Shown here in pieces: positions 9,877 to 43,900 of a stretch of 64,000 bases of DNA (positions are counted from its first letter, which is position 1; every line of letters begins with the position of its first letter). A program made the position numbers and the translations under genes. The notes under the pieces were generated by a model, which was not told the origin of the DNA, did not search any database, and was given only the letters and a program-made list of their open reading frames with translations. This DNA comes from a virus: the IMG/VR virus record IMGVR_UViG_3300030117_006323, positions 1-64,000 of that record, one strand, 5' to 3'.

Positions 9877-10865
9877 TGAATTGGACAGAAAAGCACCGGC
9901 CTAGCCATGTGTTGCAAATGGCTGGAGTCGAAGAACTCAAACGAGATTCGCGTAAATGGGCCGAAGCAAAGGGCACTGATGGATACCCACCTGCATTGTT
10001 GTTCACGGGTCCACCGGGTACAGGTAAGACAACAGCGGCTAGAGCACTCGCTATGGAGATGCATGGTGATGAACTCGATGGCCATTACATTGTCACTAAT
10101 GCTTCTGATGACAGAGGCATTTCATTTGTTCGGGATGAACTCAAACAGATAGCGAGAGTCAAGTCACCCACGGGAAGGCGCAAGGTCATCCTTCTTGATG
10201 AGGCAGATGGACTTACACCCACAGCGCAAGACGCATTGCGACAAGTCATAGAGACAACAAGCAAGAGCACACTCTTCATACTCACAGCCAACCGTGAGGA
10301 TAAACTCAAGGCTGCCATCAAGTCACGGTGTCAGCATTACAGGTTTGCTCCTGTTGGCTCTGACGACGGAGCCCGATACTTGCATGATATTATGTGCAAT
10401 TACGTAACGGGTGGTTTACCAAGGGAGCATCTGGTGCTTTTGGTTTCGGTATGTAATGGGGATATGCGTAAGGCCGTTACGGTGCTTGAGAGCATGCCTG
10501 ATTATAACGAAGCGACGTTCATGGATACAGTACGTGCGCAGAGTAGCGAATTAGATGATGCATCTTTGGCCGTTATGAGTGGAGACATGTCACTTGTATC
10601 CGTGAGAATTAATGGTGCATTAGAAAGAGGGCAAGACAGATTCGGCATCCTTAAAGGACTCCGTCATCGCCTCCGAGGTCTGTTGGATGACGAGGACTAC
10701 TTTGTATTCATGAGAGTGTGGGGAGAATTCATGCAGATGACAATGGAATGGCCAGCAGATGACCGCTCTTTCTTTGAGTATTTCGTGGCTGAACTAGCGC
10801 ATGTAACCAACTCTTCCTTTAAGAACCATCAACAAAATGAAAAGCAAACCGAAAGAGGTGAATAA
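9876..10865 (+). CDS. rfcS: replication factor C small subunit (clamp loader)
   Basis: WTEKHRP, GPPGTGKT, NASDDRGI, LDEAD, AQDALR, SRC, GDMRKA. Alternative ATG at 9867. Confidence 0.95.
   Translation: MNWTEKHRPSHVLQMAGVEELKRDSRKWAEAKGTDGYPPALLFTGPPGTGKTTAARALAMEMHGDELDGHYIVTNASDDRGISFVRDELKQIARVKSPTGRRKVILLDEADGLTPTAQDALRQVIETTSKSTLFILTANREDKLKAAIKSRCQHYRFAPVGSDDGARYLHDIMCNYVTGGLPREHLVLLVSVCNGDMRKAVTVLESMPDYNEATFMDTVRAQSSELDDASLAVMSGDMSLVSVRINGALERGQDRFGILKGLRHRLRGLLDDEDYFVFMRVWGEFMQMTMEWPADDRSFFEYFVAELAHVTNSSFKNHQQNEKQTERGE
10814..10846 (+). promoter_or_regulatory. promoter motif copy 3 / 33-bp direct repeat B
   Basis: Exact copy of 9844-9876, lying within the 3' end of rfcS, followed by GAGGTG SD and ATG 10866. 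Confidence 0.85.
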
Positions 10866-12161: not shown

Positions 12162-12356
12162 ATGAGTGCGTTAGAAGATGCAGTGTGTGCCAAAATCAAG
12201 GCACGTGCCGACCGAGGGTGGCATAAGTACGGCAAATCAATGGAGCGCCGTGACTTGTCATTCATGGAATGGCTTGTACATCTGCAAGAGGAACTCATGG
12301 ATGCCACAGTTTACGTTGAGAAACTGATGACCATAGCAGAGGAGGAAGAAGTATGA
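12162..12356 (+). CDS. small all-alpha NTP pyrophosphatase-like (MazG-like) phage protein
   Basis: R…G..KYG…R.DL…WL.HLQEELMDA.VY..K. Confidence 0.6.
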   Translation: MSALEDAVCAKIKARADRGWHKYGKSMERRDLSFMEWLVHLQEELMDATVYVEKLMTIAEEEEV

Positions 12357-13342
12357 GTGGATTCGGAGCAAAGAAGGGAGCCGTAGTGGCTAAGAAAAAG
12401 GAGGAGCAAGCGCAGGCTGAGAAGTCTGTGATGATGAAAGAAGCAGGCGCGAAGCCCTCCAACACATTTGAGAATCTTGAACAAGAGTTGGCGTTGCTCG
12501 CTGACCACGGCCCTAAGAGTCACATTTTCTGTGGTGTCGTGGGGCATGAGAACACAACCAAGACAGGCACAGTCATGGATGCTTTCATGACAGGTATCGG
12601 TCAGGACAGTGAGAACATGTTATGGGTGCTTGACTTCGATGGTGGTGCGGCGGCATGTCGTGCTGCTCATTGGGGCAACACACCTCAAGTCAGATGTTGG
12701 GACCCATACGTCATGCAGACAGATGACAGAACTGCCTATGACTATCCCGGCACGCACCAACGTGTCATGGATATTGGCCAGTTCGCTGTACAGCAATCTG
12801 TCAAGCAGATGCAACCGGGGTACACAGGCCCTCGACTCACATACTTCATGGTCACCAGCGTTGACTCATGGGACAGCGTCTGTGTGAACAATATGAAGAT
12901 TACAGATATGGGTATCGCTAAGGACGGTATCGAAGCGAGTGACCCTACCAAGACAGTGGGTAACCAATGGAACTGGAGCATCAGGACTACTCGATTCCAT
13001 CAACTCACAGCACTGTGCCGCAGACTTGTGGCTAATGGTGTGGCTGTGTTCTGGGAAACTCACATCAAGCCAGAGGTATTCCGCGACCAAGAAACTGGTG
13101 GTTGGAAACCTGACTGGGAAAAACACACAAGCAATTACTTGAACCAGATTCTCTGGTTCCGCAAGAAGAAAGTACGGGAGGCTGATGGCAGTCCCACAGG
13201 TGAGACACATTACACTGTGGAATTCCATAAGTGCAAGACGAACCCTACGCTGCAAGGGCAGGAAAGGGTCATCTTCAGCACAGCCAAAGGGCGTGAGCCT
13301 ATTTGGAATGGCCTCCCAGAACTACGGGAGGGCGTAATGTGA
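12353..13342 (+). CDS. RecA-fold ATPase (Sak4/AAA_24-like recombination protein)
   Basis: Walker A-like GHENTTKT, VLDFDGG, Walker B-like VTSVDSW, FWETH.K. Confidence 0.65.
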   Translation: MSGFGAKKGAVVAKKKEEQAQAEKSVMMKEAGAKPSNTFENLEQELALLADHGPKSHIFCGVVGHENTTKTGTVMDAFMTGIGQDSENMLWVLDFDGGAAACRAAHWGNTPQVRCWDPYVMQTDDRTAYDYPGTHQRVMDIGQFAVQQSVKQMQPGYTGPRLTYFMVTSVDSWDSVCVNNMKITDMGIAKDGIEASDPTKTVGNQWNWSIRTTRFHQLTALCRRLVANGVAVFWETHIKPEVFRDQETGGWKPDWEKHTSNYLNQILWFRKKKVREADGSPTGETHYTVEFHKCKTNPTLQGQERVIFSTAKGREPIWNGLPELREGVM

Positions 13343-13376
13343 CGCAGTCCTTATTACACTCGCTGAATATCGCAAC

Positions 13377-13551
13377 AAAAGTCGAGGGCCGAGGGGGTTC
13401 GGCGAGGAGGTTTTTTCATGTTTGACCTAGACATTGCCTCCTCGGTTCTCGCAACTTATTTTCCTCGGAACTCCGTAAAAAGTCGAGGAGTGAGGGGGCC
13501 GAGGAACCCGTTTCAGGTAGGACTATCCCCCCTCACTCTTCGCAAACGGAG
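13377..13551 (+). ncRNA. putative structured RNA/DNA element: two related long hairpins
   Basis: CGAGGGCCGAGGGGG/CCTCCTCGGTTCTCG and CGAGGAGTGAGGGGG/CCCCCTCACTCTTCG stems with G-U pairs; both flanked by AAAAGT…CGCAA. Confidence 0.55.
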
Positions 13552-13553
13552 CG

Positions 13554-14360
13554 ATGGATATGGTAGCATTAACGGTTAGCCGGAAGGGCTTACAGCAACT
13601 CATAGATGGGTTTGGTACAGGCATAGGCGACCTCCGCTTGAGAGTAAAACACTCAGGTGTGATTGGAGGTGAAGGCAATGGTGCTGTCCTTGTGGCATCT
13701 GTAGGGTACTACACCCACTACTTACGTTTGACTACGATTGTCAATGATGTAGAAGAGCCGGGCTCAATAGCAATCAGTGACATCAATGCAGTCCGTGCTT
13801 TCCTGAAATCAGGGAAGGATACAGATGTGCATTTACAACAGGATGGTGAAAACAAGATGCTTTACCTCACCTGCGGGAGAGCCAAGATTCATCTACCCGG
13901 CACAGGCAAAGTGGAATCCTTTTCACACGTACCTATGATTGAGCGCATCATCAAAGAGGCCGAGGAGAATCATTGGACTCAATGGAGTGACCGACCTCTA
14001 TCTTGTTCGGGTACGCTGCAAACATCTGACACACAGGAAGCCATTGCTATACATTCTGTGTTGGGAGAGAACCCGCTGTACACGGTCGAGTTCTGGGCCA
14101 ATCAATCAGAGATGAAAGTCAAGGCCGGGAAGAAGAGCAAGGGGCGTATGTTTGTAACTGCGCCCATCGAAAATGCCAAAGGTCCTGAACATAAATGCAC
14201 CTCTGTGTATGGGGCTAACTTCCCTGTCAATCTCAAGTGCTTACCAGCGGGGGAACTCAACATGTACATGGGGGATGACACCCCTATTGTATTCTATCAC
14301 GATGCCACAGCCTCTTACCTGATTATCTTTGACTGTGACTATGAGGAGGGCTGGCAATGA
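13554..14360 (+). CDS. putative DNA sliding clamp (PCNA-like)
   Basis: 268 aa, alternating beta/alpha pattern, C-terminal L.MY.GD.TPIVF…YLI; lies between clamp loader and PolB. Confidence 0.55.
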   Translation: MDMVALTVSRKGLQQLIDGFGTGIGDLRLRVKHSGVIGGEGNGAVLVASVGYYTHYLRLTTIVNDVEEPGSIAISDINAVRAFLKSGKDTDVHLQQDGENKMLYLTCGRAKIHLPGTGKVESFSHVPMIERIIKEAEENHWTQWSDRPLSCSGTLQTSDTQEAIAIHSVLGENPLYTVEFWANQSEMKVKAGKKSKGRMFVTAPIENAKGPEHKCTSVYGANFPVNLKCLPAGELNMYMGDDTPIVFYHDATASYLIIFDCDYEEGWQ

Positions 14361-14470
14361 GAATCCAGAAATGTTTCTGCGGTTGGATAGGCCCTACGGA
14401 TGGGCTTACTGCTTGTCCCACATGCAACCGCCCCTTCACCAATTACAAGTGTGAGGGGTGTGGGGATTGA
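14357..14470 (+). CDS. 37-aa Zn-ribbon microprotein MRIQKCFCGWIGPTDGLTACPTCNRPFTNYKCEGCGD
   Basis: Manual translation; ATGA-coupled upstream and TTGA-coupled to polB. Confidence 0.7.
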   Translation: MRIQKCFCGWIGPTDGLTACPTCNRPFTNYKCEGCGD

Positions 14471-16854
14471 TTGTTGACCAATATTACCCAGACCATGATG
14501 GCCGGGCATGGATTTACACACGTTGGCGTGACGAAGAAGGCCATCTTGTAGAGCGCCATGTTCCACCCAAAGAGTTTGAACCGTACTTTTGGATACCCGC
14601 TAAAACAAGACCGGCTCTTGTGGAGCGTGTCATTTCACGTTACCCGGGTTCGCGTGTAGTGTGGGAGGACAGAGCCGTATCAGTACCTGACCCTGTAGAT
14701 GGAAGTACGCAACTGGTGAAGGTCATTGCACACAAACCATCTGAGATAGGGTCGATGAAGGATGAATTTCCACGGACCTATGAAGCCGATGTTCGATTCC
14801 AAGACCGATACTTGATTGACACATTCAGGGACTTCCCCAAATGGACACCTAGAGTCTGGCACTTTGATATTGAAGCCGTCTATGTAGGTACAAGACAAGA
14901 GATGTGTACTGTCATTTGCGTCAATGATTCCGTGCTCGGGTACCCCGTAGTGTTCGCTTGGAATCGGGAACAAGAAGAACTCAAGGAAAGAGGGCAGCCT
15001 TGCGCCGAGACTATGTGGGTAGAGCGGGTCGATGGATATGAACTCAGGCTCTTTGGTAGCGAAGGCGCTACGTTAGAAGCATTCCTTCAATTCATGGAGG
15101 AGTGTGACCCCGACATCCTTGTCGCACATGGTGCTAATTACTTCGACGTACCTCATCTCATTCGACGGTTAGGTGATGACTTCCGTCGCCTCTCTCCTAT
15201 TCACAAAGTCCGTAGACCCCCCAAGACCAAAGGCTACTACGGCGATACAGACCAGCCAATCCTAGGCCGCATTGTATTCGACAGTGCTTGTCGTGGTTCC
15301 ATGGGGGGCGGCTTTGAGCGCGTTTGGATGGACAGTGGGCGCGGTCAATTGCCCAATCGCAAGTTGGATACCATCGCTAGAGAGTTAGGCTTGGAGGGCA
15401 AGTTCGATGTTGATGCTAGCGATTGGTCTATCTGGGAGGGCAACCATCCTGAAATTTCTTTCTGGGACTATGTGGACTATTGTGTACAGGACGTAATCCT
15501 GCTCCGAGATATTGACAAGAGGTTGCACGCATTGGACTTCTTCCTCGCATTGCAGAGATTGTGTGGTGTCATGTTTGAATCAACACACAACGTCACCAAG
15601 TTTGCCCGTGGATTACTCAGTCGGCGAACAGATTGGAAAGCACCTACTAGGGACAAGTCAGACCGCCCGCCTCTCAAAGGGGCATACATCCCTCCACCTA
15701 CACCCGGTCGATACGAAGGGGTAGCAGTAGTGGATTACAAGGGTCTGTATCCATCTATTATTCTCAGCCACAATTTATCCTACGAGACATACTTCCATGG
15801 CCAACCCACACCCGGGCAGATAGAGTCAGGGGAAATCCATGTCTTGCCTAATGGGACAGCATGGTTACAGACGGAGAAGGGTTTACTCCCCACTATCATT
15901 GAGGAAATGTTTGCTTTACGCGATGAACTCAAAGCCAACATGAAAAACTCACAGACAGATGAAGAGAGGGATGGCTGGGATATTTTCCAGAAAGCGGTCA
16001 AACGTGTCATGGCCAGCCTGTACGGTATGTGTGGAAGCGCTGGTTATGGATGGGGCTCTTACGAAGTGGCTAGTAGTATCACGGCTGTGGGTCGTGAGAG
16101 CATCCATTTCCTATTGAATGAAGCAGAGGCCCAAGGATACAAAGCGCTCTATGGGCACACAGATAGTAGTATGATTCAGGTGCCTCTTGATGAGGCCGAA
16201 ACGCTCGCTAAGCATTTGACAGCGAGGGTGCAACAGGAATTGAATGCACCTCAACTGTTCGTAGAACTTGAAGCCTACTTCCCCTTCTGGACTGTAGCCA
16301 AAAAGAATAGGTACTTTGGGATTAAATCTTGGCCAGAAGAGGAGGCCGGGCAGATGAAAGTAGCCGGTTACGAATACAAGGCTAGTCACTCTGCTCCTCT
16401 CACCAAGGAGGTGCAACGCATTATTTTCACTCACATTAGCGAGGGCCAGAATGAACAGGAGGTATCCTCTGCGTTACGACCCTTGGCCAAGGCGGTGCTC
16501 ACGGGTGAGGTCGAATTAGACATCCTCTCATCTTGGGCTAGACTTGGTAAAGACCCTGAGAAATACAATCCATCACACACACCCAATGGGGCAAAGGCTG
16601 CTCTGTTCTTCAACAAGCACATGTCTGATGGAGTCAAGTTCAGACAGGGGGATAGTGTGCCATGGGTCTATGTGGACCACCCTGATACAAACGTAGTCGC
16701 TTACATGGATGAGTCCGATTTAGATGGATTTCAATTGGACTACCCTACGATGGTTGAGAAGTTAATCCTCTCTAAAATCACAGTATTCGATGAGGCCATG
16801 GGGTGGGACCCGAAAAGAGCGGTGGGTAAACCAGCACCGAAAAGATACTGGTGA
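14467..16854 (+). CDS. polB: family B DNA polymerase (probable TTG start at 14467)
   Basis: ExoI FDIE, ExoII FD, ExoIII YCVQD, motif A DYKGLYPSII, motif B K…SLYG, motif C YGHTDS, KKNRY. Confidence 0.95.
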   Translation: MIVDQYYPDHDGRAWIYTRWRDEEGHLVERHVPPKEFEPYFWIPAKTRPALVERVISRYPGSRVVWEDRAVSVPDPVDGSTQLVKVIAHKPSEIGSMKDEFPRTYEADVRFQDRYLIDTFRDFPKWTPRVWHFDIEAVYVGTRQEMCTVICVNDSVLGYPVVFAWNREQEELKERGQPCAETMWVERVDGYELRLFGSEGATLEAFLQFMEECDPDILVAHGANYFDVPHLIRRLGDDFRRLSPIHKVRRPPKTKGYYGDTDQPILGRIVFDSACRGSMGGGFERVWMDSGRGQLPNRKLDTIARELGLEGKFDVDASDWSIWEGNHPEISFWDYVDYCVQDVILLRDIDKRLHALDFFLALQRLCGVMFESTHNVTKFARGLLSRRTDWKAPTRDKSDRPPLKGAYIPPPTPGRYEGVAVVDYKGLYPSIILSHNLSYETYFHGQPTPGQIESGEIHVLPNGTAWLQTEKGLLPTIIEEMFALRDELKANMKNSQTDEERDGWDIFQKAVKRVMASLYGMCGSAGYGWGSYEVASSITAVGRESIHFLLNEAEAQGYKALYGHTDSSMIQVPLDEAETLAKHLTARVQQELNAPQLFVELEAYFPFWTVAKKNRYFGIKSWPEEEAGQMKVAGYEYKASHSAPLTKEVQRIIFTHISEGQNEQEVSSALRPLAKAVLTGEVELDILSSWARLGKDPEKYNPSHTPNGAKAALFFNKHMSDGVKFRQGDSVPWVYVDHPDTNVVAYMDESDLDGFQLDYPTMVEKLILSKITVFDEAMGWDPKRAVGKPAPKRYW

Positions 16855-16855
16855 C

Positions 16856-16874
16856 CCTTTAAGAAGCAATAAGA
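16856..16874 (+). promoter_or_regulatory. promoter motif copy 4 (CCTTTAAGAAGCAATAAGA)
   Basis: Immediately after the polB stop; TTTAAG starts 28 nt before ATG 16886. Confidence 0.6.
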
Positions 16875-17119: not shown

Positions 17120-17337
17120 AATGGCTTGACAAATTTAGGAAGAAGCCAGAAGTATCTAAACGCCGTTACTACTGCCAGTGTGGTGGTATCGAAACAAGGC
17201 AAACGACTCTAGACGAATGGGACCCACACATGTTCCGCCCAGAAAAACAACAAGTCATCTGGGAATACATACCATCTGAAACAACGGAACGAGTAGGTAT
17301 GAAAAGCGATAAGCGTAGATACAGGGGGAACATTTGA
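17116..17337 (+). CDS. small protein with CxC and PIP-like box QTTLDEW
   Basis: ORF track plus motif. Confidence 0.6.
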   Translation: MKWLDKFRKKPEVSKRRYYCQCGGIETRQTTLDEWDPHMFRPEKQQVIWEYIPSETTERVGMKSDKRRYRGNI

Positions 17338-17450
17338 TGAAGTGCGAAGTTGAATCTTGTCGCGCTCAGAGACATCCGGGCAAGCGTAGATGCCTAAGTT
17401 GCTTTGTCATGGGAAGGAGGGGTGATGTTGGACACAGCCAAACAAAGTAA
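17337..17450 (+). CDS. 37-aa Zn-finger microprotein MKCEVESCRAQRHPGKRRCLSCFVMGRRGDVGHSQTK
   Basis: Manual translation; TGATG coupling; Cx4C…CxxC. Confidence 0.6.
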   Translation: MKCEVESCRAQRHPGKRRCLSCFVMGRRGDVGHSQTK

Positions 17451-19942: not shown

Positions 19943-20646
19943 TCCGAGCGCCCGTTCTGTTCATAGATTCAAATGAACGCGGACCCCTCTGCAATGCAGT
20001 CGAAAGAAGCGCCGAAAAACAAGGCATCACAATCGTCAGAAAGAATCTACCTGTAGGTGATTATCTCTCAGGTAATTCTGTTATCGAAGCGAAGAGCATT
20101 GGTGACTTATTCCAATCATCGCATTCAGGTCATCTATGGAGGCAACTGGATAACATGGATGCGAACTATGACCGATTCTTCTTGGTTGTCCATGGGACCA
20201 TATCCAAATATCTAGCCATGGCTAAAAATAATGGTAAGAAAACATCCTATTCTAGAGTGCAGAGTGAACTCACAGGGACACTAGCGAGAATCATGGCTGA
20301 CTTTGATTGCCAAGTATTCTGTACAGCGACACACAGTGAAGCCGCTATGTTCATCACCAAATTACACAGTAAGACACACAAGTCTGCCAGTAGACATGGG
20401 GCTAAGGCATTGCGGAGGGTGTCCACAAATGATGTACGAGCAGACATGCTACTCACGATACCCGGATTCGGGCCTGACCTCGTAGATAAGTTGCTAGACA
20501 GATGTGGCTCTATTGAAGAGATGATGCATGAGAAATCACTGAAGGAAGTACGTGGGCTCGGAGGTACGTTGCGGGCTAGGCTGATTGATGTCTTGACCAA
20601 AGAGGAACCTGTTCTCATTGAGCGTAAAACACGCTTGAAATCATAG
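19939..20646 (+). CDS. XPF/ERCC4 (Hef-like) structure-specific nuclease with tandem HhH; start codon uncertain
   Basis: In frame upstream of ATG 20155 are IDSNE, LPVGDY, IEAKS..DL..S and L..QL; C-terminal IPGFG…VRGLG. Confidence 0.85.
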   Translation: MVRAPVLFIDSNERGPLCNAVERSAEKQGITIVRKNLPVGDYLSGNSVIEAKSIGDLFQSSHSGHLWRQLDNMDANYDRFFLVVHGTISKYLAMAKNNGKKTSYSRVQSELTGTLARIMADFDCQVFCTATHSEAAMFITKLHSKTHKSASRHGAKALRRVSTNDVRADMLLTIPGFGPDLVDKLLDRCGSIEEMMHEKSLKEVRGLGGTLRARLIDVLTKEEPVLIERKTRLKS

Positions 20647-28930: not shown

Positions 28931-31900
28931 TCACTCTCCGCTGTGGTCTCCTGTGTTATAAGATGCAGTCCCTTCTTCACCCTTAGCGTGTAGAGTTTGG
29001 CTGTGTCTAGGTTGAACACTGTAATCTCTACGTGTGATGCTAGAACCATCGGCATCTGTCGAGTAGAATCGTCGCCGTGGAGCGTCACTACGGAAATGCT
29101 CTAGTGTGTTTTCTGTGATAAGAATACGCGCTACTGTTTTGTCAAGAGCCACGCTGTAACCACTCACATCAGCACCGGGGATATTGGGGCCACTCGATAG
29201 ACTGAGAGTTGGGGCAGCCGAATCAATTGTGTAAGATGGTGAATAGGGTGGGCTGACTGGTGTAACAGTACCTGTGCGAGCATTCGGCATATCATAATTG
29301 AACAGACCGTATTTACCACCAGATGTTGAACGATAAGCATCATTCCCATCTTGGGGTGTGCTACTCTTTGTGACAGAATCAGCCCGGAATATTTCTACGT
29401 GTCTGTTGTCTAACACTCGGCTTGGCCTCAATAGGAATCTCACCGTCTTGTCAAAGTAATTCATCTGTGTCCCAGATACCGCATTGTGTGTACCTGCTGT
29501 GCTACTTACTACAGGTCCATCTTGATACGGGTTAGAAGGATTCCATGATTTGAATGTGGATGTGCTGCCAATGCCGTATTTTGAAGCAAGATATGCTTCG
29601 ACTTGTTCAATTTCAGTTGTGGATAGAGCGCGATTGTATTGAATGATTTCAGCCATATCGCCATTCAATTGATATGACGATGTAGCATTCGTTCCTAATT
29701 GCGATGCATCTGCTGTAGATTTGTAGAAGTTGGCGCTTTGTGTACCAACTTGTACGCCATCTACTCTGAATAATTGTGTAGCAGATGCGCCAGCCCCATT
29801 TCCTCCACTCACTTGACCGACTAGTATGGAAGGTACTCCGCTAGTAGAAGCACTGTCACCACTTGCCGACAATGCCTTCCAAGAAGAGTCAGCGCCCACC
29901 CAGAATTCCCAATTGTTATTGCCGCCAGTATTTCTCATATCAGCGTAGAAGTTGAAGCCAGAGCGAGTAACTGGACTACTACTTCGGCTGTCAATAATTG
30001 CTTCAATGGCGTCAGTGTCGGAACTTACGGCTGTAACAATGAAAACAGTGAATTCGTTAGTATTCAAACCAGCGTCAAAGTTGAGTGCGAGTTTATCTGA
30101 ACCGTCGAAATTGACTACAGGCTTGCTGTTGAAATCTGAATCAGATGCTACATACGAAGGTTGTAAACTGCTAGTTGATTGTGTGAAGTGTCTTGAATTG
30201 CCGGACAAATCGTCCCATTGTGTCACCGCTGCTCCGCCAGCCAAATCGAGAGAATCAGATTTTAGCCACAATGCCAAGCCACTCAACGGCATTTGTTGCC
30301 CCCAACCTGAGTCATCGAATGGTTGAGCGTAGTTACGAACTTCCAACACATACGTTCCACCCAGTGGCCACATAGCATGCGCGTTGGATAAACGGACAAC
30401 CGCAGCATCTGGCTGTGTAGCCCATGTAGGAGTGGTGAGGTCGAAGTGAGTCAATGTTGTACTACCTGCATTGAATGCTCCTCTTAGCGAGAGTCGTTGC
30501 CCGACCTCCTTGTCTGTGTGTAGGCTATGTGCTTGCGTGGACATGGCGATATGGTCAGTTTCTTGGCCACCCGAAATCGCTTCAATAGTTTCAACATCCA
30601 AACCAATACGAGGGGCGCTTCTAGACATTGGGTCAGCCAATGTGACACCGCCAATAGTGAATGTACCTGAGACAGTTTCGACCTTTTCGCTAACGTTTGC
30701 TTCCGGCTTGAGTAAACCATCTTGGGCTACACCTAATCTAGCGCTGATACCTCTAGGTATTTCTGTTGATGCAGGTGCCGAATTAGCAGGTCTGAGATAA
30801 CCAGTAGTGAAGGGAGGTTCGGCTGTGCTATGTGATAGAACTAGACCTGCTGGTAGTAAATCTTCAGAGATGTCATGCAACAAACTCTCATTGAATACAG
30901 TTGGCCAACGCATGCCCCGGCCATCACCACGGTCTCCAATACGTTGCGCTCTCTTTGGATTGAACCAATCAACCCGGGTCATATCTGAATTGTTAGTTGA
31001 ATTGGTTGTTCCTTCTTGCTCTGTTTTGTAAGAAGCGCCGTCATCATGCCATAAGTCAGTTGCACTTGGTTTGAGATTAGCATAGGCGTCGTCGGTGTAT
31101 GCTTCTTCTGGGTCCCAAGCCGGACGAATTCCGAACCCACGTGCAGGGAATCTACGGACATCTTCACCGCGAGTGTTACCCCACCAATCGACAAGATAGA
31201 ATCTGTGGGCTTCTGCAATTTCATCAATGCCTAGTCCAGAATCATCGCCGGGATATTTTTTGCGGACAGTAGATGCATTTCTGACTGTTCTAGTAGGACA
31301 ACCGAAAGGTCGTGTCATACGCCTACCGTGACTGTATCTCACTTGACGCATTGTCTGGTCATTACCAAGCATAGCGGTGGCTTGTGTTTGCCTTTCTAAG
31401 ATGCCAGCGTTAGTGGCATTCCAAACGATGTCCGCAGCCCCACTTAAGCCAGCGTCTGCGTTTTCTTTCCAACCACCCGAAGCCTGAGTCCGGCTGTCTT
31501 GAGCGACAAACGGGCCATGGGAGTATCCTGTCATATTGTACTCGGCTGAAGAACTGTGCCCGCCTGTGAAAGAGGTGTGTGTTGTGTTGTCCAATGTTGA
31601 TACAATGACAGTATTACCCGCAGAACCAGCGACATTTTGAGTGAACGTCAGAGTGCCAGCCCCATCATCAGCGACTAAGATTTTGCCATTATGACCAGAT
31701 GCATGTTCAACAGCGCCCTTCAGAGAAGTAGCATTTGCGGCAGCGCCTCCATTGGCGTCGAATTGATTTGAAGCAAACGCCGCTGTGTTTTTGGCTGTGT
31801 ATGTTTTGGTCGTCCCGTCTGTTGAGATGAGGATGATTGTTCTGTCTGTAGTCGGGTCACCTGTGAATGTGATACTGGCTGTTGCCGCTGTCTCTTCTAC

Positions 31901-34900
31901 TTCATCTATGCCACGAATACCGGGTGACCAACGAGGTCGATTAAAAGGCGGACGGACGGCGAATCTATAACCAAAGCAATATTGACGGTCATGCTCTAAA
32001 GTGGATAGCAAAGTGTGTGTGCCTGAGAATTGTGTGACAGTAGTGTTGGCCAAGTTAGACACTATCAAAGATTGATTCTTTACTTCTGAAGGAGTATCCG
32101 TCAAAGTCAATACACCCGAGGCTCTTGTTACATCAATCTCGCCGTTGTGCCCAGAAGCGTGCTTAATTGCCAATAACAATGATTCGGCGACATCAGCATT
32201 GGTGTTATCAACACTAAACTGATTCGATGTTATCGTGGCGCTACCTGATACCGCAGTGTATGTTTTGGTTGTTTTCGCTGCTGACGTAATTACAATTGTG
32301 TTACCAGCACTAGGTTTACTGGCTCCTATGTTAATCGAAGCGAGTAGCAACTGGTCAATACCTCCAGTCGATGTATCATACGAATATGGAGTACATTCCA
32401 TCCCGTAATCATTGTCACCCCAACCTGCCTTGATGTACCCATAGCCATCTAATCTGCTACCAGCAGGGCCACCACGACTACCACCGGGCCAGAACCCAAC
32501 GTATTGCCTTGAGCCATCTCCTTGGTGGTTAGTCAAATCACTAGCATTTTGTGCGGTACCATCGCTTGCAGGTGCTTGTCCTTTCATATCAAACGAGAAT
32601 GGCCCCTTACTGATACTGTAAAGGAAATCGTGATAATGGATTGTCTCAAAATGTTCTGGGATGTGATTGAGCCCTTTCTTATCTTGCGGTGTATCAGCGG
32701 CCCCTGTGTTCGTGTAGAAGGTGCGTCCTGTGTCACTGTAGAAAGTGTAAGGACGGCCTAAATTTGGATGCCAGAGGCACAAGAAAGCATCTGCTTGATG
32801 CAAACTGTTAGTGTCTCTGCTACCGTGGTATGTTTGGGGTAGAACACGAGTAATAGCACTGGTTGTAGATGCTTGGAAAATTGAACCTGCCGGAGTAGTA
32901 TCGTAAGGCCGTGAAAGACGTAGGATTTCGGCTGCCGCCAATTTAGTCCAAAACGCAGGAGTCACAGCAATGACATTCTCAAATTTAGTCGGACCTACTT
33001 CCAATGAATGGCTTTTCGTGCCAGTTCGATGTGTGTAAGTAGCCGTTTGTCGGGACCCTTCGTTGTCAATGTATTCTAGAACTTCCCCATAGAAGGAATC
33101 TACTGGGAATAATTCGTTATTATCTACGGTGATAGTTCGGTTTGTCGAACTCAAAGACAGTACAACACAATGTGGGTTTAGGCTACGGGCACGGAAATGG
33201 TTTTCGTAGATGTCAGGATAAATTGAGGGATAGCCCGCCAATGTAATTTGACATCCGACAGCCCCGTAAGTTGCTCTACAAAATTGATAATAGTCATCTG
33301 GCTTATGCCATTCATTGAACACATAACCAGACGCTATACTACTAGTCGGTTTGGAACGATGGAGAATAGCCCACCATGGCACAGTAAGAGTGTAACCGGG
33401 AGTTGCTCTTTCAAATGTTCCCGGTCGATAAGGCAAACTCCGCCTACTGAATGGTGGAGAAGTATTTTCGTTGACTCCAATTGGATTATACAGACCTAAT
33501 GTAGGGATGTTTGTGAATTGACTGCCGGGGTCAGGGTCTAAATCTAGCATGACCTCATTGATGAAAATTTCACATCCTCGCGTATCTGCCATTGTTGCTT
33601 CTGCCAACAACAAACCAACAGCCCCTGTCGAACCCGCTGCATCATGCTCTAATCCGATGACCAAATTGACTTGTTGCCCGGTCAACTCAACAGCCGAACC
33701 ATCAGGTAAAGCAGTAGCCGCTCCATTTCGATGGAATCCGCTAAATTGTTGTTTGTGCAAATTAGGCTGTATGATAATTTGGTAGGCTCCGACTTCAATG
33801 GGGTCAGGGAAATGTGGTTTGAGACTGTAAGTCCCAGCCGCTTCTAGATAGATAATGTGTTTACCAGCCGCATTGGCAGTACCTGCTGCTCCTTTAGAGG
33901 CAGCAATGCCGTATCCATCATAAGCAACTTTTGTCTCTGTGAGTAAGGTAAACGCACCACCGTGAATATCACTTGGGCGCAAAGCACTGCTTGGAGTGGA
34001 GAACCAAACCAGTGGGTCTCTTACAGGTATGTTTGTAATGGCCAATGAAGTATCATCATCAATTGCTGTTTTGCTTGAAGAGCGGCAACCATAGTGGAGA
34101 TTGAATGCTCTCTCATAAGCAGGGTGGGAGAAATGTCCGGGCATAACCATCATACTTGGAGTGACATAATGATGGCCCATGCGGGGAATAGGCATTGGTG
34201 TAAGTTTTGGTTTAGTCAGAAGAGTCACTGGATTAGTCTCTGTCCAATCTAATCGTTTAGCGTCAGGGCTGTTTCCTGAAATTTCACTGTGGTCACGTAA
34301 ACGTCGAGCAGCGAAAAACCGATTAGAGCCCGCTGGAATATACCACGAAGGTTTGATGACTAAGCCTGTTTTACCGCTGATGAAGGTACTGAAATCTGGG
34401 TCGAAAACTACACCTGTGAAATTAGCACTTGAAATATTGGTGTATGAAAATAAAGCACCTTGACCTGTAGCATCTTCTACTCTAGCGAACCATCTACCAT
34501 CAGCCGTTTTCTCGCTGTCAATTTTCCAAACAGCCGCATTTGGAGATGAGCCCGCTGTAACCGTGTTAGTTCCACTGGAAGAGAAGGTTAGTGGGTCGGA
34601 TACAATAGAGCCAGAAGAAATTGCAGTAGGATTTCTACTTGAGCCAGTATGCCCCATCTTGGTAACATGGAAGAACAAAGTGCGGTCATGTTGTTCATAC
34701 GCAGTTTCTAATGGGTTACCATCAGTATGGTCATCCCAACCTTTGCTGTGTTGGTCAGGGAAAGCCAGTCTTGTTTCACCTGCTGTTAAAGAAGAGTCGT
34801 CAGCATCTTGGGAAATATGTTCCCAACCTTTGTTTTCCCAAGTAGGCCATCCTCTCGGTCCTTTAGCCGAATCCGTGAAAGTATCTGTAATACCTTGGAC

Positions 34901-37900
34901 GGGTTGAGCAGGATGCATCATGCCTCCACTGCCTAGAGTTTCATTTTGGTAAGACTGGATTCGGTCAAACCCACTACGAACAATGATGTTACCCGGTATT
35001 GTATCGGGGTCAGGCAAACGAATTCGCATGTTGGGTGCTAAACCACTGTTAGCCAATGTCGGTGAAAGCCCTTCTGAAGAACGGTCGCTGACTAATTCAA
35101 AATCACGGATAATTGTACCAAACGGAGACCCTCCTTCAATCACATGAATTTGACCTGTGTCGTCCATTACTTCTACACTTTCAAATTGAGTTTCTTCATT
35201 TGGAATAGTCAATACATTTTGCAACTCACTACCTACGGGTTGCTCTGCCAATTGAGGATGTGACAATTCTTGGGCTTGAATGATTGGGAACATGGCACTG
35301 TTAGTTGATTCAAAGGAGAAGCGGCAATTGCCGTAAATGGTTTCACCCATTGTGTAAGCATTGACACCCGACACTCTCGTAGTGAAAGGTACTGCTCCAA
35401 GCCCACGAGCATTGCAAGCAGGCATAGTAAGATTTCCACCATCCATACGTTTCCATACAATGTGCTCAATCGTGAAGTTACGGGCCGGAGAGCGAGCCGC
35501 CCAATAATTCCAAGGCTCCAAATCATCAGGCGGAGTGGCTGTTGTCCCTGATACATTACAATTTACAGAGAGGCTGTTTTTATCTGCATGTAAGCGATTA
35601 CTGTAAACGCTGCTTTCATCCCAAAATAAATCGCCTGTCGGTACTGCACAAGATGTCAATAACGACATCTGGCTCGCTGCTGTGACACGACTGTGCCAAT
35701 GTGATTCAGTACCTACGTTATTGTAACTAGCCGTGTTGGTGGGTTGTGTTTGCCCTGTGACAATTTGTGCCTCTACGTTAGGACCGGCGTTAGCAGGGGC
35801 CACATAACGGTCTAGGTTGAATACTTGGTCTGCCACTGCAATAGTACCACCAAACTCTTGAGTGTTCGATACACCACTCTTCACTTGTGCTGCATATAAC
35901 CAATCGCCTACACCCTTGGTACCATCTCTATCTGCTTTAGCAATCAACGCCAACTCTGATTCATACGTGACAGCCACTAAATGGCGAGGCGAAAGTCCTT
36001 GTGGGCAAACTGAATTGTATGTGTAATTCATAGTGCCTGATTCTCTGGATACAGGGATGACCGAACCTTGGCAAGTCGATGAAGCACCGTAAGGCGAGAA
36101 GCCCAAATATGGATGCCATGCACCCAAACCGGCTGCGTAAACCGCAGTAGATGCATCATCAGGATTTCTGAGGTCTAAACTGTTGAGGTAAGAATATCGT
36201 TCTCCGTGCCAACCGATTGCTCCGACCGCGCGAGTTCGGTCAATTGCATCCATCAATCCATTGAAATGAACTTGGCACATGTGATTTTGACTATTTGCTC
36301 CACTATTGGTTCTACCATTGTTGAAAATATGGGCACCTGCTTTTGTCCAAATGTAAACAGTTGCCTCAGCCTTAACCGCATTTACAGTAGAAGCAGTTGC
36401 TGCTGTGGCAGTATCTACAACACTTTCCTCCAGTTGTTTTGTGCCACCACGATTAACATCCAATGTCACTTGGAGATGGCCGGGGTTAGGCACAGTCATA
36501 GTATGGTACGGGGCATAAACAGCAGTAGCGCCTACACTATACGAAGCGACTCTTGCGGCACCGGAGCCATTGTCATTGCCACCTATTCCTACTCTCAACC
36601 AACCATAACGAGGTAATGGGGGTAAATCTGCTCCGTATGGATTCAGAAGGTTCAATCTGTAATTTGTCCCACTACCTCCAATCTGTTCATAGAAATCTGG
36701 GTTCCCACCTTCGCCAGCCATTTCCATTGCTGTGAATGCCTGCCAACCATAACGGTCTTGTTTGTGCCCTGTTTGGAAAGATGGTAAAAACGTACCACCG
36801 ATTGCTTTCAATGGGTCTCGGCCCGGCCATTCGTTGATTGAACAAGATAGAACAGCGGCCAACTCTTCTGCATTTTGTACTCTTGTGGCGTCTACAATGA
36901 CGAACTCTTCGGTAGAGTATGCACTTGTTGCACCATAGGAAGCAGCCAACAAACCGCTTACACGGAATGCACTAGGGTGTGATTTTGCAGTTCCATTGTG
37001 TGTCACTGTCCCGCTGTCTTTGTAATGAGGTGCATTGATGAGTACGTGTCTATCAAGGAAATGCCCACCGGGATGATACCCTCCATCCATGTGCCAGATA
37101 AAACCTGCATGCCGTAGTGAACTACCGATTAAAGAAGTGGGAGCGTAATCAAATGGGTGGGCGTATGGTGGCGGTGCATAACTGCCACTAGTGAAATGAG
37201 AACCGTAATACAATCCATCGTAAGGAGTTTGGTCGTATCCATGCACTGAAGCAGCAGACCGAACATTCGGTTTTCCTTGTGCAGGTTCCCAATTGTCAAC
37301 ATAATTCCAACCTTTTGCATTTCCAATTTGGAAATTAGCAGAAGGAGGTGTCAAAGTACCACCGCTGTGACGCCCATTAACATCACCGCTGGTCAAAGTG
37401 TTTGGTGTGAATTCACCAGCAGCACCTGACAATGTCTTAACTGTGTCTTTGCCTAAATTTGGTTGAATTGCTGCATTGTTGTGAGGGAAGGCTTGACCGG
37501 GGCCGAACACAATGTAAGTTGTTTTTCCACTGCTAGATGCATCGTGGCTGTACCTAGAATGAGAATGTGCAAATCTTAGAATCACAGGGCTGGGTATTGT
37601 GACCTTTGTGATATTGGCTCCTGCCCCGTATCCGTAATCAGAGTCCGAAGCCATGCCTGTTGTACCTGTTCTTGAGTTGTTACCCGCATCTAAATCGGGA
37701 GACAGAATACCATCTTGATTGTAGAAAGGTGGATTGTTTTCACCCTTGTGGTTATCGAGATAAGGTGTCCCGGGGAACATAGCCAACATGGCCGCACAAT
37801 CTACCAAACAATAGGAAGTAGATTTCTCCCCGATATTTTGTAGCCCCGCGCTACCTGTCGGCCCCTCTGAATACGGATGAGTGTAGAAATCACTGTAATC

Positions 37901-40900
37901 ATTCTGTGTGCCGTCATTGACATCCATAACTACACCACTGAATCCACCACCGAAATAGACAGGGACGCTGTGGTCAGGGCTATCTCGCCCGCCCCTGAAG
38001 TAAACTAGAGGTTCACCGTATGAATTACCGGACCTTCTTATCCCATCGAATGCAATTGTATCTGCAACAGAGCCGTAAGTCGAAATGACACAATCGTTGT
38101 TTGCGGTTTCAAAGGCTTCAATATTCGCCTCAAAGTTATCAGATACAGCACCACCTGTTGCGCGTGATTTCCACATTAGGAATAATTCCGGGTCTGTGGC
38201 ATTTCGTGTACTTTCAGCAATAACCCAATCCTTATCGTTTAGCCAATATCTACGGCGCTCACCCCAAGAATCAGCATTAGCGGAAGCAGGAATAGCCATG
38301 TGCCAAAGATAACCTGTGCCACTGGCTGCTCCAACTTTGATTGTCCGTGGATTAGAACTGGTATCAATTGTCGTAGAATCGCCGTCAATCAGTGCAGTTC
38401 GATTTTCAATCATAGGCAAGATGTAATCTCCGGGCTTGTCCACATAACGTGCTCCTCGTAGATTCTGCCTCCATGTGGTCACATCAACAGCATTGTTCAT
38501 CGTATCGACTAAAATGGGTGTGGCTGTATTCGCGTTGGTTCCTCTCGATTTGGTACGGAGGTGTAATACTGTCTCAGGTAAATACCCACATGCAGTACGC
38601 TCACCGGCTGTCAATTGATTAACTGACATAATTGCAGCATTTGTGCTACCACTGATACCCCAGTCTTTGGATAGTGAAGATTCAAACAAACAACGCAGTG
38701 GTGTAATATCGTGGTTTTGGCTATGTGCGCGCACACGGATGGCACCCGCATCCACGCCCCACTCACCGAGTGTGCGACCATCTGCTGCTCTCATATTGGT
38801 ACAATCAAATGTTGTGGCACTATCAGAATTAGGGTCATCCATATTGATAGCGAAATTAACAGCCGCTGCTATGACCTCATCTGTAAGTAATGTGGTCCAC
38901 CCAATCCGAGGGCTGATAATCAAACCACTATCACCGTTCGGTAAAGCAGTATTCCCGGTTACACCGTAGAACTTGTGTGTCCCACTTTTACTACTATGAG
39001 TACGACCTGTGTAAGAAAACGTCAATCCAGTTTCCGCTGCTGTTCCGGGTTTACTGGTTTGGAAAACACCGGCATCGGGGAATCCTAGATAGCCCAAAAT
39101 ATCATCGTGGCTGTGGGTGCCACCACTATGATATGGGTCTGGTAATTCGATTGTCACTGTTGTTCCGCTAACACTGACGTTATCAATTTCAATTCCTACA
39201 TTCGGGCAAGGGAATGGTTGCCATTTGTTCCCAACCCAAGTCGCAGTGCCTACCATAGACTCTGTTTCCAACAATCGCCCTGTGGCTTCTCCAATGCCCC
39301 ACATGTGTTTCCCGATTGTGAATCCACCTGACCCACAATCACGGTCATCGAACCAAATACACACTTCTTGGTCGATTGTAGGAGGTAGTGTACTGTTGTC
39401 GTAGGAGAAAGATTCGCCGAATTCAGAATAAATAAAGCGCAATGTGTGGGCTCGCCCAAGATGGTCAGTCAAACGAAGACCATACAATTGATTGCCAATA
39501 GCATCATCTTGTATTTCAGCAGAAGGAACATGTCCTTTCTCCACACCTGTATCATCAGGTGTAGTGTAATCTACTTCTGTCAAAGTGCCATTTTTACCAT
39601 AAGCATGTAAGTATCGAGTATTACCTTCTTTGCCCATGCCCCAAGGTCCTGCTCTAGGGCTAAACCCGGGCACACCAGAAGCAACTAAACCACCAAAATT
39701 GATGCGTGCTTGGGCTCTAGTTCCTAGCCGTAACCCTTGTGTCAACACAGAATCCGGGCTTTGGCTTTCATAGGAATCTTGGTAAACAGTGTTCTTGGAA
39801 TAACCACTAACACCCATGTTGTTCGCATTGGTGATAGCCGCATCTGTTTTTGAGCCATAATTCAGATTGTTCATGAATACATCTTCTGGCTCTTCTGGAG
39901 GTAGATATTCATTGAGAGTTGTAATCGGAGCAAAGGGCCTGCCATCTTTGTTGATAGGCATAGGTGCTGGATGCATATTTTCCATTAACACTTCATCCGG
40001 TCGGCACCAGAAATTACGGAATCGGCCACCATGTCCAATCAAGAATTTCGGTCGATAGGTACTCTGACCTTTGGAATTGTCTAACCATAGGCAGAAATTG
40101 CGCCCACTAGCACCGGGGACTGTACTATGGATGACAATGCTGAACCCTTCGTTTCCGTTTCCTTCAGCATCTTCTACTACACGGCCTAAGTGAGCACGCA
40201 CATAACCCATGTGTGACCCTCTATCGTGACTAGCAAATGCTTTGTCGATGTCCCAAAATGGAGCAGGGTCGTGTGTGCTACCCGTAGGAGAGAAATCGGC
40301 AGACAAGTGGGGTGCACTTGCATCAATCAAAGAGGGCTTGATGTTATCTCTCGGACCTTGAAGCACTTTGGAATGGCCGCCATCTTGGAAGATGCCGACT
40401 TTTTCTAAGCCCAATCGAGCGCTTTCACTTGGGTATTGGTTGGCAGGTCGGCGTGCATGAGTCCTCCCTTTAGGTGCTCCCGCTTGATTGATTAGACGGA
40501 CGACTTCTTGAGCCGCCGCTTGGATGTCCGTCACACCTTCCTTCACGCCAACTTCACCGAGGTCGATGGTCAGTCTTCGGACAAAATCCATTTGTGTCCA
40601 GTGGGATAGATGTTGCAAACGTGCCTCTTTGTGTGAGGTCAAATCTAGTGTTTCAGTTCTCTTGCCTTTGAGGCACAAGAATGCAGGTATAGCACGAGTC
40701 CCCTCCGGTGTATCAAAGAATGTGGCGTATTCTGCTTCGACTGCTTCACCAAGTGCTTGGAAGTGCCGATGTTTGAGAACAGCACTAGATGGACAACATG
40801 TCTCTTCATGTGTCCTAGGGGGTGAGCCGTCACCTACACAACCCCCTGCTTGAGGATGGTGGCCGTGGTCACCGTGTGCTTCAGTAGCAGCCCGATAATT

Positions 40901-43900
40901 CCATTCAGAATCATGGCTAAATGCTGCTTCCATAAATTCTGATGCTGCTGTAGGTGCCACGCTTTTATCTTCTGAAGGTTGGCCATTCTGTACATCTAAT
41001 TGGGTAGAATGATTCGCACTTGTAGGAGAGCCGTTAAAAGCGGCTGGGCCACTGACAAGATAACTGGCTGGAGTCCCAAACTTAGGTGTAGCGGGAGAAG
41101 ATTGTACTTGCATGTGAATATCATGCATAGCGATGAACTCTCTATCATGCGCAGTATCGTAGAGCAAAACGCGGGCAAATCCCGCTGTGGCTTGGTACGG
41201 GTCAACAAATGCGACAACAGGGGCACTATCATCACGCCCTAATTCTGCCCAATTCAATTCAATTGTTTTGTTGATGTGTTGTACAAAGTTGGTAGCGGTT
41301 TCTAAACAATCATTGCCAATCAAGAAGTTCTCCATTGGGATACTGTCTCTTGGTCTGTTAGCCAACGCTCCTTCGCCACCATTGAAATGCCGAGCAACTA
41401 ATGCTTCGTTGAATGTACCTCTGCTCTTGCAGAAGAGTCCTTCAACGGCATGAGGATTAGTGTAGTGCATGTTCATCCAAACTGTGTCGCCATCACGCAA
41501 ACCACCAGCCGCATACGGATGCAGCCAAGATGCATTTAGAGCGACATCTTCTTGCACTTGCGGATAAGCACTTGCAGAAATATTCCGGTAATCTTTGATG
41601 AACACTTCATCTCCAGCAGCAGGTCCCCAACCGCCAGATTTGGATGAGGCTATAATTGTCAATGTGTTTCCGTTAATGGTTTCGTATTGAGCGGTTTGTT
41701 CAGTGCCTGAAGAATCAATATACGCAACACGATACCGATATTGATAGGTCCCGCCTACTTTGTACAAGTCATCCATACCTGTCAGTGGGAAATCAGAAGC
41801 ATCTGTAAGAAGTAATGATGTACCACTCCAACTAATTACAGTTGAACGTGCTCTTCTGTTCTTCGTGCGTGGAAGGTGTGGGTTCTCTCTTGGGCCTGCT
41901 TTGAATTCTACTGCACTAACGTACTGTCTGAGACCGTAGTCAATGTTACCACCTTGTGTTTGGACATTTGCCCGGTCATAGTAGTAAGGCCGCCGTCCTT
42001 CATAGGCTGCACTCAGAATAGTAGGATGATTGCGGATGGCAGGGAAATTTTCATCGAATACACCGGGCCCCGGATACAATGCCATACCAACTTCATGTGT
42101 AGCCAAGAAATTTTCAGACATGCATTGGTCTAACAAATCATCATCGACAATTAAATCGTTCCCGCTAATCGAAGAATAGAGAATCCACTCTCCGTTGGGT
42201 AAGAATGCCCGTTGGTAAATTACAGCACCCGGTCTAGCACTGGCGGTTGCCCCAGTGTCTGTGTAATTGTTGAGTGCTGCCGCAGTAGTAGTCGAAGTTT
42301 CAAACATCCCTCCTTCTTCTACAGCCAGATAACCATGTGTGTCAATTCTGAAAAGTTGCTTGATATGTGTTCCTTTTCTCAAAGCGTTTTGGCCCTTGTT
42401 ATTTGCATGTGCACCGTAAATAGTACGGTCTGTCGGCGTATTGTCATCACAACGTCGCCCCACAGGATTTGGGGCCCATGTATGAGCAGTGTACGTACAA
42501 TCAACGTGAATTTTGAGCGAATTGTCAGGACCGGGTGAAATACAGGCTTCTTTGTTTTCAAAGAACAAATTTGGGAAAAGTGGTATTTCGACAAGAGCGC
42601 GAGTACCAGCATATTGAGTCCCTAATTGGTAATCGTGACTTACACTATCCATACGTTGGAACATACGGTCATTGATAGTAGAGCCATCATTACAGACAGA
42701 ACTCTCGCCAAACTCACCATCAACAAATAACAGAGTACCTGCGACAACACCGTTGTTAGCGACCCAATCGGCGAAGGTATCTGATTCAGTACCATTTCCA
42801 TTTAAGAAAGCAGCCGTTCCACCAGCACTAGAGCCACTGAATGTGAATACTGTGCCGCTTTTTGACGCATACAGAGCACTAGCCCCGTTCTCTAGATACA
42901 CTCGACCGACTTTCGGGAAGCAATACGTGCCCCAAGAAGCCAAATCACTTGAGTCGTTGTTGAGCGGTATAACCGTCAGAGTAGTAGAAGCAGTTGCAGA
43001 TATTTGCACCGCACAATCGCGCCGCGTATTCCATCCTAGGCGCGTGAATGGTGATGGGTCATAAGTCGGCTTTGTATTGATTGCACCTTGGCCGGGACCA
43101 CCTAGAGTCACAGTAACAACAGGAGAGCCGGGCATGACCTCTTTGACAACGTGTGAATCAGGGGCCCCTGAGCCAATGAAATCTACAGTTTTAGAAGAGG
43201 CATCTTCTGTAAGACCGACACAAGTCATTACAAGTGAATCTTCTCCATCAGAATCAGAATATGATTGTACGCGCATTTTAGAGACCAAATTACTGATACG
43301 GAATGTTGTCGATATATCCATTGTAGAGAGATTTTCTCCAACTGGCCATACTTTCAACAATTGCGTTGTTCTTGAACGGTCTGTTGGTTGGATGACTATT
43401 TTACTTGTTTCTTTCAATTTTCTATTCGCCAATGGACCTAATTCACCCGCAATGATGTCGAATGTTTCGTAAAGGTGGGATGAAATATCAGGGTCAGCAA
43501 TATCAAAAACACCAGCCCCCGTGTTACTTACAAAGGGCTGAAGATTATACACACCATATTCAGTGCGTTCCCCATAATTGTTGCCCGAGATTGTATCTGG
43601 AGTCATTTCTAGTAAATGGAAAACTGATGTTTTGGTTGAATCAGTGTGTTGAGCGGCAATTACTTGTGGCCCTCTGTTTGGAGGGTCGGTGGAAGTAAGT
43701 GGTGTGTAATTAACAGGTGTACGGCTTTCATCCAATTCATCTTCAAAATCAGAGCCTTCGTGGCCACTTGATTCAATGCTTTCTATCAAACCAGCAGGAT
43801 GATTACCACTATGTATTTCTCTAAATTCTAAAACCCCACCGGGTGAATACAAGAATGTCTCTTTCGCAGCATTGGCTAAATCAGAAGCAACCACATCATA

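Follow-up and report, generated by a model that had tools for sequence, protein, structure and literature searches.

Introduction

Phage T4 carries translational operators on its replication genes, among them a pseudoknot in the gene 32 leader, a hairpin operator on gene 43 and RegA sites on genes 44 and 45. The element that we describe here resembles these operators in being a structured RNA (one of those of T4 is a pseudoknot) that lies in the leader of a gene for viral replication, either at the ribosome-binding site or adjoining it. The T4 operators, however, are small and work through a known bound protein, whereas the present element belongs to a virus with a probable archaeal host and has no relation to them in sequence or model; we know of no protein that binds it.

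Masking of a Shine-Dalgarno (SD) sequence also couples genes within polycistronic mRNAs, as in the coat-replicase pair of MS2 and in the E. coli IF3-L35-L20 operon with its pseudoknot. There, as proposed for our locus, a downstream ribosome-binding site is held in a helix that upstream translation or a competing fold can open. The two situations differ in distance, since in our locus 130 nt separate the upstream stop codon from the strand that pairs with the SD sequence (the anti-SD strand); a ribosome that terminates at this stop cannot reach the strand, and a putative 53-codon open reading frame (ORF) is all that crosses it. A further point of comparison is offered by stabiliser hairpins between cistrons and by RNase III sites, such as the REP/BIME elements, malE-malF and the sites in phage T7 early mRNA. 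They have in common with the present element very stable stems between cistrons, variable loops and tandem copies. They are dispersed, whereas the present element is single-copy and fixed at one junction.

To our knowledge, hardly any structured regulatory RNA is known from archaeal viruses. Here we describe an abundant uncultured group of ocean viruses that keeps an RNA structure between a recombinase-like gene and the genes for a sliding clamp and a DNA polymerase. In one lineage this junction structure appears to have been remodelled into two tandem, probably knotted hairpins that would bury the clamp ribosome-binding site.

Results

The window, by which we mean the whole stretch of 64,000 nucleotides that was analysed, is the first 64 kb of a linear IMG/VR record of 91,170 bp with an estimated completeness of 85% (contig G000:C1, to which positions refer unless a relative is named). 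Its gene set and gene order fit those of magroviruses, the viruses of marine group II archaea (PMC5434244), and suggest a marine, archaeal, magrovirus-like virus. Contigs of relatives come from marine metagenomes in every case. The genome carries genes for a family-B polymerase (25% identical to its best named relatives, which are from haloarchaeal tailed viruses), an RFC-like AAA+ ATPase, a chaperonin and an HK97-type major head protein. It also contains a single ORF of 5,681 codons on the minus strand (28931-45976), which is very large for a 91-kb tailed virus.

The replication block consists, in order, of an SSB-like gene, a small ORF, a RadA-like ATPase gene, the gap studied here, a sliding-clamp gene, a Zn-ribbon ORF and the family-B DNA polymerase gene (PolB; 14458-16854, plus strand). 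The ATPase gene (12353-13342, plus strand) encodes a 329-aa protein with the P-loop-like sequence GVVGHENTTKTG, which is 72-78% identical in relatives; the name RadA-like is suggested by the magrovirus gene list (PMC5434244). The following gene (13560-14360, plus strand) encodes a 268-aa protein that is 99% and 76% identical to its relatives P0001 and P0002. We identify it as a putative clamp by its predicted fold alone, the model (mean pLDDT 66.7) matching DnaN/PCNA sliding clamps. Sequence searches of Pfam, PHROG and PDB with the 329-aa and 268-aa proteins gave no match.

The intergenic region between these two genes (13343-13553, plus strand) is 211 nt long, has a GC content of 0.53-0.54 depending on where the ends are cut, and is built of two paralogous units of ~100 nt, each with a 15-bp stem, S2. 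In unit 1 the stem (HP1) pairs 13383-13397 with 13437-13451 on the plus strand, all 15 positions being paired and three of the pairs being G·U. In unit 2 the stem (HP2) pairs 13484-13498 with 13528-13542, again at 15 of 15 positions and with one G·U, and the apical loop spans 13507-13527. The units align through a common AAAAGTCGAGG...GAGGGGG...CGAGGA...TCGCAA, and the flank motif AAAAGTCGAGG occurs at 13377 and 13478 and nowhere else in the genome. A sequence-only reading of this DNA had described two related stem-and-flank units, and we could reproduce its letters, coordinates and pairings as well as the shared flanks, AAAAGTCGAGG on the 5' side and TCGCAA on the other. Its statement that this is the only gap of ~200 nt in the replication block does not hold on a crude ORF map, which shows others at 17203-17403 and 19943-20154; both probably hold coding sequence. 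Three pairs of segments in the region are perfect complements, namely CTCCGT/ACGGAG, TTCCTCGG/CCGAGGAA and CGAGGAGG/CCTCCTCG.

These structures are exceptional for this genome. The 218-nt region folds with -82.7 kcal/mol (z = -3.1). In a scan of every 80-nt window on both strands of the whole 91-kb genome, HP2 was the most stable plus-strand window, with -37.3 kcal/mol (genome mean -15.9, sd 5.0), and HP1 the fourth most stable. The gap holds six perfect 8-mer inverted pairs where 0.42 are expected, a number that none of 1000 shuffles reached, and no other internal gap of the genome folds as strongly. Folding per base is stronger in just one place, the 222-nt 3' end of the contig (90949-91170), which has a GC content of 0.59 and, at -0.41 kcal/mol per nt, is the tightest of all gaps. 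Over both strands of the genome, the lowest energy of any 80-nt fold occurs outside the window, on the minus strand (66561-66650, -45.9 kcal/mol), in a long hairpin whose blocks of 4 to 9 bp, mostly of 5 bp, are separated by single mismatches; it lies within a 601-codon gene (66278-68083). The region between the RadA-like and clamp genes has no second copy in the genome. A blastn search of the DNA against phages and a search of IMG/VR for the pattern AAAAGTCGAGGNNNNGAGGGGG gave no match, and a scan of prokaryote genomes found no occurrence. A search with the pattern of the SD sequence and start returned 41 loci, among which the only relatives were two contigs already known.

The stems keep their pairing while their sequence changes. 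Stem positions were compared in tables built by coordinates, as MAFFT alignments of the hairpins put the 3' arms in the wrong place. HP1 and HP2 have different bases at six of the 15 stem pairs without loss of pairing at any, and at two of these both partners have changed (C-G to U-A and C-G to G-C). A strain variant, present on contigs from two DNA runs of other studies, carries 14 substitutions and three indels in the 211-nt gap and eight substitutions in 1,390 nt of flanking coding sequence. Just two of its substitutions fall within the 60 stem bases, and both preserve pairing (13387 G>A, from G·U to A-U; 13535 A>G, from U-A to U·G). If the helices described below are included, the variant has four changes in or beside helices (13364, 13387, 13507 and 13535), each of which keeps or adds a pair. 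The HP2 loop, by comparison, is rewritten between 13507 and 13523, with six substitutions and three deleted bases, and a small apical ACC/GGU hairpin is kept. The stems are constrained and the loops are free, the covariation within the window lineage being that of two paralogues and one variant. The variant also carries an identical T>C at 13351 and 13456, which changes both CTTATT boxes of the gap to CCTATT and could reflect gene conversion or a shared recognition motif.

We then compared HP1 and HP2 with the hairpins at the same junction in four relatives (L021, L006, L002 and L010). These six hairpins give 82 stem cells, of which 79 are paired; when the register is shifted, the number falls to 37-52. 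The pairs that are not Watson-Crick, seven in total, are without exception G·U when read on the plus strand, with no A·C among them; on the minus strand 72 of the 82 cells pair, and HP1 does not form. Since the non-Watson-Crick pairs are all G·U on the plus strand, the folded molecule is sense RNA, most simply mRNA, in agreement with the earlier suggestion that stems which diverge and still pair through G-U point to RNA. Pairing is kept by compensated changes on this strand.

Each unit contains a second potential helix, S1, between its 5' flank and its hairpin loop. In unit 1, 13359-13367 (CUCGCUGAA) is complementary to the first bases of the HP1 loop (13398-13406), which overlap an SD-like GAGGAGG at 13404-13410; the helix has 9 bp including one G·U and was absent from the sequence-only reading. 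In unit 2, 13461-13468 (UUCCUCGG, the linker of that reading) is complementary to 13499-13506 (CCGAGGAA). Helices of this kind with eight of eight pairs occur exactly once per unit, among 1056 and 550 possible combinations, and they have the same register in both, 15 nt upstream of the stem on one side and at the very start of the loop on the other. At five of the eight pairs the two units differ in both partners. In the variant, 13364 T>C converts a U·G pair of unit 1 S1 to C-G, and 13507 C>A provides a ninth pair in unit 2 S1, U-A with U13460.

The strand order S1a-S2a-S1b-S2b is that of an H-type pseudoknot in both units, with loops L1 of 15 nt, L2 of 0 nt and L3 of 30 nt (unit 1) or 21 nt (unit 2), which should be long enough sterically. 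Covariation supports S2 well, and for S1 it consists of the two paralogues and two changes in the variant. We consider it likely that the S1 helix forms, although its complementarity could stem in part from nested duplication, in which a repeated CGAGG/CCTCG motif was reused. The pseudoknot that had been proposed between the second loop and the linker is thus a perfect complement with a matching, compensated helix in unit 1, and its formation is likely rather than proven. A second proposed contact, GGGTTC with GAACCC, is contradicted, as 13507 C>A breaks it in the variant and its G bases already lie within the HP1 stem. The segment CGAGGAGG, put forward as an alternative partner, loses one base in the variant; such a role is possible from its complementarity. 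When a matching flank-loop pseudoknot was sought in L021, L006, L002 and L010, none was found. L006 has a U-rich loop, TTGGTTAT (1282-1289), that is complementary to ATGACCAA (1338-1345), a segment including the clamp start codon, and a loop-to-start pseudoknot is possible there.

Unit 2 contains a third helix, S3, in which CUCCGU at 13471-13476 pairs with ACGGAG at 13546-13551. These 6 bp are present in both the minimum-energy and the centroid folds, and they bury the clamp ribosome-binding site: the segment 13546-13551 includes the clamp SD sequence GGAG (13548-13551), which an 8-nt spacer separates from the ATG at 13560, and has a predicted unpaired probability of 0.00-0.01. In partition-function folds the clamp SD region has a mean unpaired value of 0.12, where the median for the genome is 0.39; of 81 ORFs, only one has a lower value. 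This closing helix had been described as ending 2 nt before the ATG. The helix itself is perfect; the ATG in question (13554, which the ORF lister also took as the start) is probably not the clamp start. ATG 13560 is the probable start, because the N-termini of homologues (M-x4-V-x-R-K) fit the second ATG. In L002 the corresponding position (~3240) reads ATA where L010 and L021 have GAGGTGATACC-ATG, and in that virus translation of the clamp may begin either at a codon other than AUG or at a GTG that lies 19 nt downstream.

The 5' strand of unit 2 S1 ends at 13468 and the anti-SD strand begins at 13471, with 2 nt between them. As S1 would stack on the loop end of the 15-bp stem while S3 extends its other end, S1 and S3 should exclude each other. 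Among 29 relatives whose gap is structured, the unpaired value of the SD region is 0.44, and that of the starts of the RadA-like genes in the same loci, which served as controls, is 0.51 (p 0.04); cognate flank-to-SD duplexes are ~1 kcal/mol better than non-cognate ones. These values give no more than weak support to SD masking as a family-wide rule; masking may be special to the window lineage.

A promoter-like motif, CCTTTAAGAACC, occurs five times in the window where 0.03 occurrences are expected. One copy lies upstream of the block, before a 428-aa gene (10816-10834, plus strand), and the next just after PolB (16856-16874, plus strand), with none between. The motif keeps the same two bracketing positions in relatives (624 and 6413 in L002, 577 and 6408 in L003, 135 and 5684 in L005), again with none between. 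L003 and L005, which are sister lineages, lack the element and have just 12-15 nt between the RadA-like gene and the clamp gene. Together, the bracketing candidate promoter motif and these short junctions argue that the two genes are co-transcribed and that the element is intercistronic. A promoter within the gap, for which CTTATT boxes at 13350 and 13455 are candidates, might leave S1 and S3 of unit 2 outside the mRNA. A consensus scan of 12800-14200 found no plus-strand terminator, and HP2 is followed by CAAACGGAG rather than directly by a U-run. Contigs from RNA runs, which show neither transcript ends nor levels, cover 13114-13322 (X18) and 13162-13375 (X20) and end short of the hairpins, with none on the clamp gene; RNA is presumably made across the gap. 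The contig of run X18, 212 nt long and with a word depth of 72, covers just the 3' part of the RadA-like gene, with nothing on either side.

Other relatives have a structured junction of their own. L021 has a 63-nt version, with a 12-bp G-rich/C-rich hairpin that begins 9 nt past the stop codon and ends 5 nt before GAGGTGA, and the gaps of L002, L010 and L006, which measure 118-134 nt, contain elements ~100-115 nt long, every one of them having two stems, one outer and one inner. A broader scan with the RadA-like protein as the query gave 80 loci. The gaps at their 79 scorable junctions measured at most 24 nt in 33 cases, 63-65 nt in two, 100-170 nt in 31 and 239-408 nt in 13. In an alignment of 30 sequences two helices covary, P1 (of G5:C5 type) and P2; 86.9% of their cells pair, against 52-62% with slid partners, and the covariation score is 0.463 against 0.13-0.17, a value that none of 500 shuffles reached. 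A covariance model of this family, R1, matches 44 of 84 loci with 29-98 bits, in one copy each, on the plus strand and directly after the RadA-like stop.

The building of a covariance model from the homologous junctions, as the sequence-only reading had proposed, thus yielded a covarying family, in which the window itself scores poorly. R1 found no match in the window with default filters, and with filters off 401 nt of it scored 0.9 bits (E 3.6). The window shares with the family a plus-strand position between the RadA-like stop and the clamp SD, and a TACACTC flank. A G5:C5-type P1 followed by UUYGG is represented in HP1 as GAGGGGG-UUCGG, whereas HP2 has the helix without UUYGG. The P2 helix of the family (ACGG/CCGU type) and its UAAUAA internal loop are absent from both window units. 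Given these absences and the score of 0.9 bits, we treat the window element as a positional counterpart of the family and not as a demonstrated member; it is probably a reduced, duplicated derivative of the junction RNA. The likeness lies in the same junction and strand, in the G-rich/C-rich closing helix followed by UUYGG, and in an end that falls a few bases before the clamp SD. The difference is that the window has two tandem, reduced hairpins, each with a potential flank-loop helix of its own.

A search of Rfam 15, which had also been proposed, gave no match at the gathering threshold, the only hits being chance matches to miRNA precursors (E 1.3-5.6). Several other classes were considered and dropped. 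ARAGORN made no call at default, 80% or 60% scores, which disposes of a tRNA-like structure or RNase P minihelix; the hairpin loops are 29-39 nt long and begin UUCGG and CCGAG, with no T-loop UUCRANY on a 5-bp stem. A CRISPR-like array, a C/D-box RNA and a bulge-helix-bulge site were set aside on sequence, and so was a frameshift or readthrough signal, as another stop follows seven codons past that of the RadA-like gene. The sequence-only reading had left a choice between an undescribed ncRNA or translational switch and a single-strand origin. A structured sense-strand RNA that is not in Rfam and has an SD-burying helix stands. A free-standing ncRNA gene is not supported, as it shows no promoter or terminator of its own and the conserved promoter-like motif flanks the block on both sides but has no copy within it. 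The origin is not borne out either: the gap is not AT-rich (GC 0.53), the GC skew does not turn there, and the sister lineages do without the element.

Discussion

Because a helix buries the clamp ribosome-binding site, a translational switch is our leading reading. In this reading the gap is without a protein of its own, and we think the chances evenly balanced that it acts in cis, as a structure within the sense-strand mRNA of the replication operon, and gates initiation on the clamp gene by masking its SD sequence. The two tandem, duplicated units would each combine the 15-bp S2 hairpin with an S1 of 8-9 bp in H-type pseudoknot order, and in unit 2 S3 would extend the hairpin and hide the clamp SD sequence. 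The masked site would then set the translation of the clamp and, through tight spacing, that of PolB downstream. Opening of S3 would unmask the site and could be brought about either by formation of S1, with which S3 is expected to be exclusive, or by ribosomes translating the 53-codon ORF across HP2. The very stable stems would probably also block exonucleases, dividing the operon mRNA into segments of different stability. We infer an effect on translation or on stability. Against the gating of initiation, L003 and L005 manage without any element, and SD masking is not strong across the family.

A more specific form of this proposal, which we regard as doubtful, is that the tandem H-type pseudoknots make up a riboregulatory switch, in which S1 and S3 exclude each other and a trigger flips an OFF hairpin to an ON pseudoknot, gating both the clamp and PolB. 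Translation of the 53-codon ORF, which starts in the loop of unit 1, or a viral or host factor could be that trigger. If true, no riboregulator with a defined mechanism would have been known before from the replication module of an archaeal virus; the switch would also offer a testable handle on the balance of replication proteins in these viruses, and would show in a compact natural case how an RNA regulatory module evolves by duplication.

The hairpins could instead be pure stability or processing punctuation, acting as exonuclease barriers or as an endonuclease site so that mRNA levels of the RadA-like gene differ from those of the clamp and PolB, with no role in initiation. We think this unlikely. 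In its favour are the confinement of constraint to the stems, with loops free in sequence and in length (from 16 to ~85 nt), the conserved G5:C5 clamp, the toleration of a tandem copy and the location within an operon. It would leave unexplained, however, why both units have an S1 helix in one register and why a perfect helix of 6 bp masks the SD. Punctuation of transcription, with the CTTATT boxes at 13350 and 13455 as TATA-like promoters, T-runs as terminators and the hairpins as leaders or trailers of separate transcripts, has a small chance of being right. The conserved AAAAGT follows the two boxes after 27 and 23 nt, the elements of relatives have T-rich boxes ~40 nt before the SD, and the variant alters the same box position in both copies. 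Yet the conserved promoter-like motif of the virus is a different one that brackets the block with no internal copy, the junctions of L003 and L005 leave no room for a promoter, the 63-nt version in L021 has none, and the consensus scan predicts no plus-strand terminator in the gap.

The 53-codon ORF (13418-13579, plus strand) opens with GAGGAGG-N7-ATG, a strong SD at ideal spacing, runs through HP2 and over the clamp start, and is open in the variant, where two loop deletions sum to 3 nt. That it encodes a real, basic protein of 53 aa, to which the hairpins are incidental or which they regulate, is nevertheless a slim prospect: 5.8 billion proteins include no homologue, the element of no relative has an equivalent ORF, and most variant changes within the ORF alter the amino acid. 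Slimmer again is the case for an element acting as DNA, whether a replication origin, a single-strand initiation signal, a packaging site or a selfish palindromic repeat. It would suit a place within the replication module, long inverted repeats that could extrude as cruciforms and repeat-rich flanks. The gap, however, has a GC content of 0.53 with no AT-rich stretch, and the cumulative GC skew is monotonic across 13 kb with no turn at 13.4 kb. Moreover, the seven G·U pairs with no A·C pair mean that one strand alone folds well, and the element is single-copy and absent from L003 and L005, which have the same replication genes.

The junction RNA family of magrovirus-like viruses is unpublished. 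A keyword search within magrovirus papers, PMC5434244 among them, found no mention of hairpins, stem-loops, promoters or intergenic elements. The practical value of the element is modest: it defines an RNA motif that is new to annotation and that could be studied by probing and with reporters. Other junctions of the group show further variation. In ten loci (L082, L084, L085, L092, L102, L104, L105, L111, L120 and L121) the gaps measure 250-408 nt, and the family RNA fills their first ~120-175 nt; the remaining ~130-240 nt also fold strongly, with whole-gap energies down to -135 kcal/mol. In a distant group (L011, L013, L014 and L017) a conserved CxxC ORF of ~80 codons occupies the junction instead of an RNA element.
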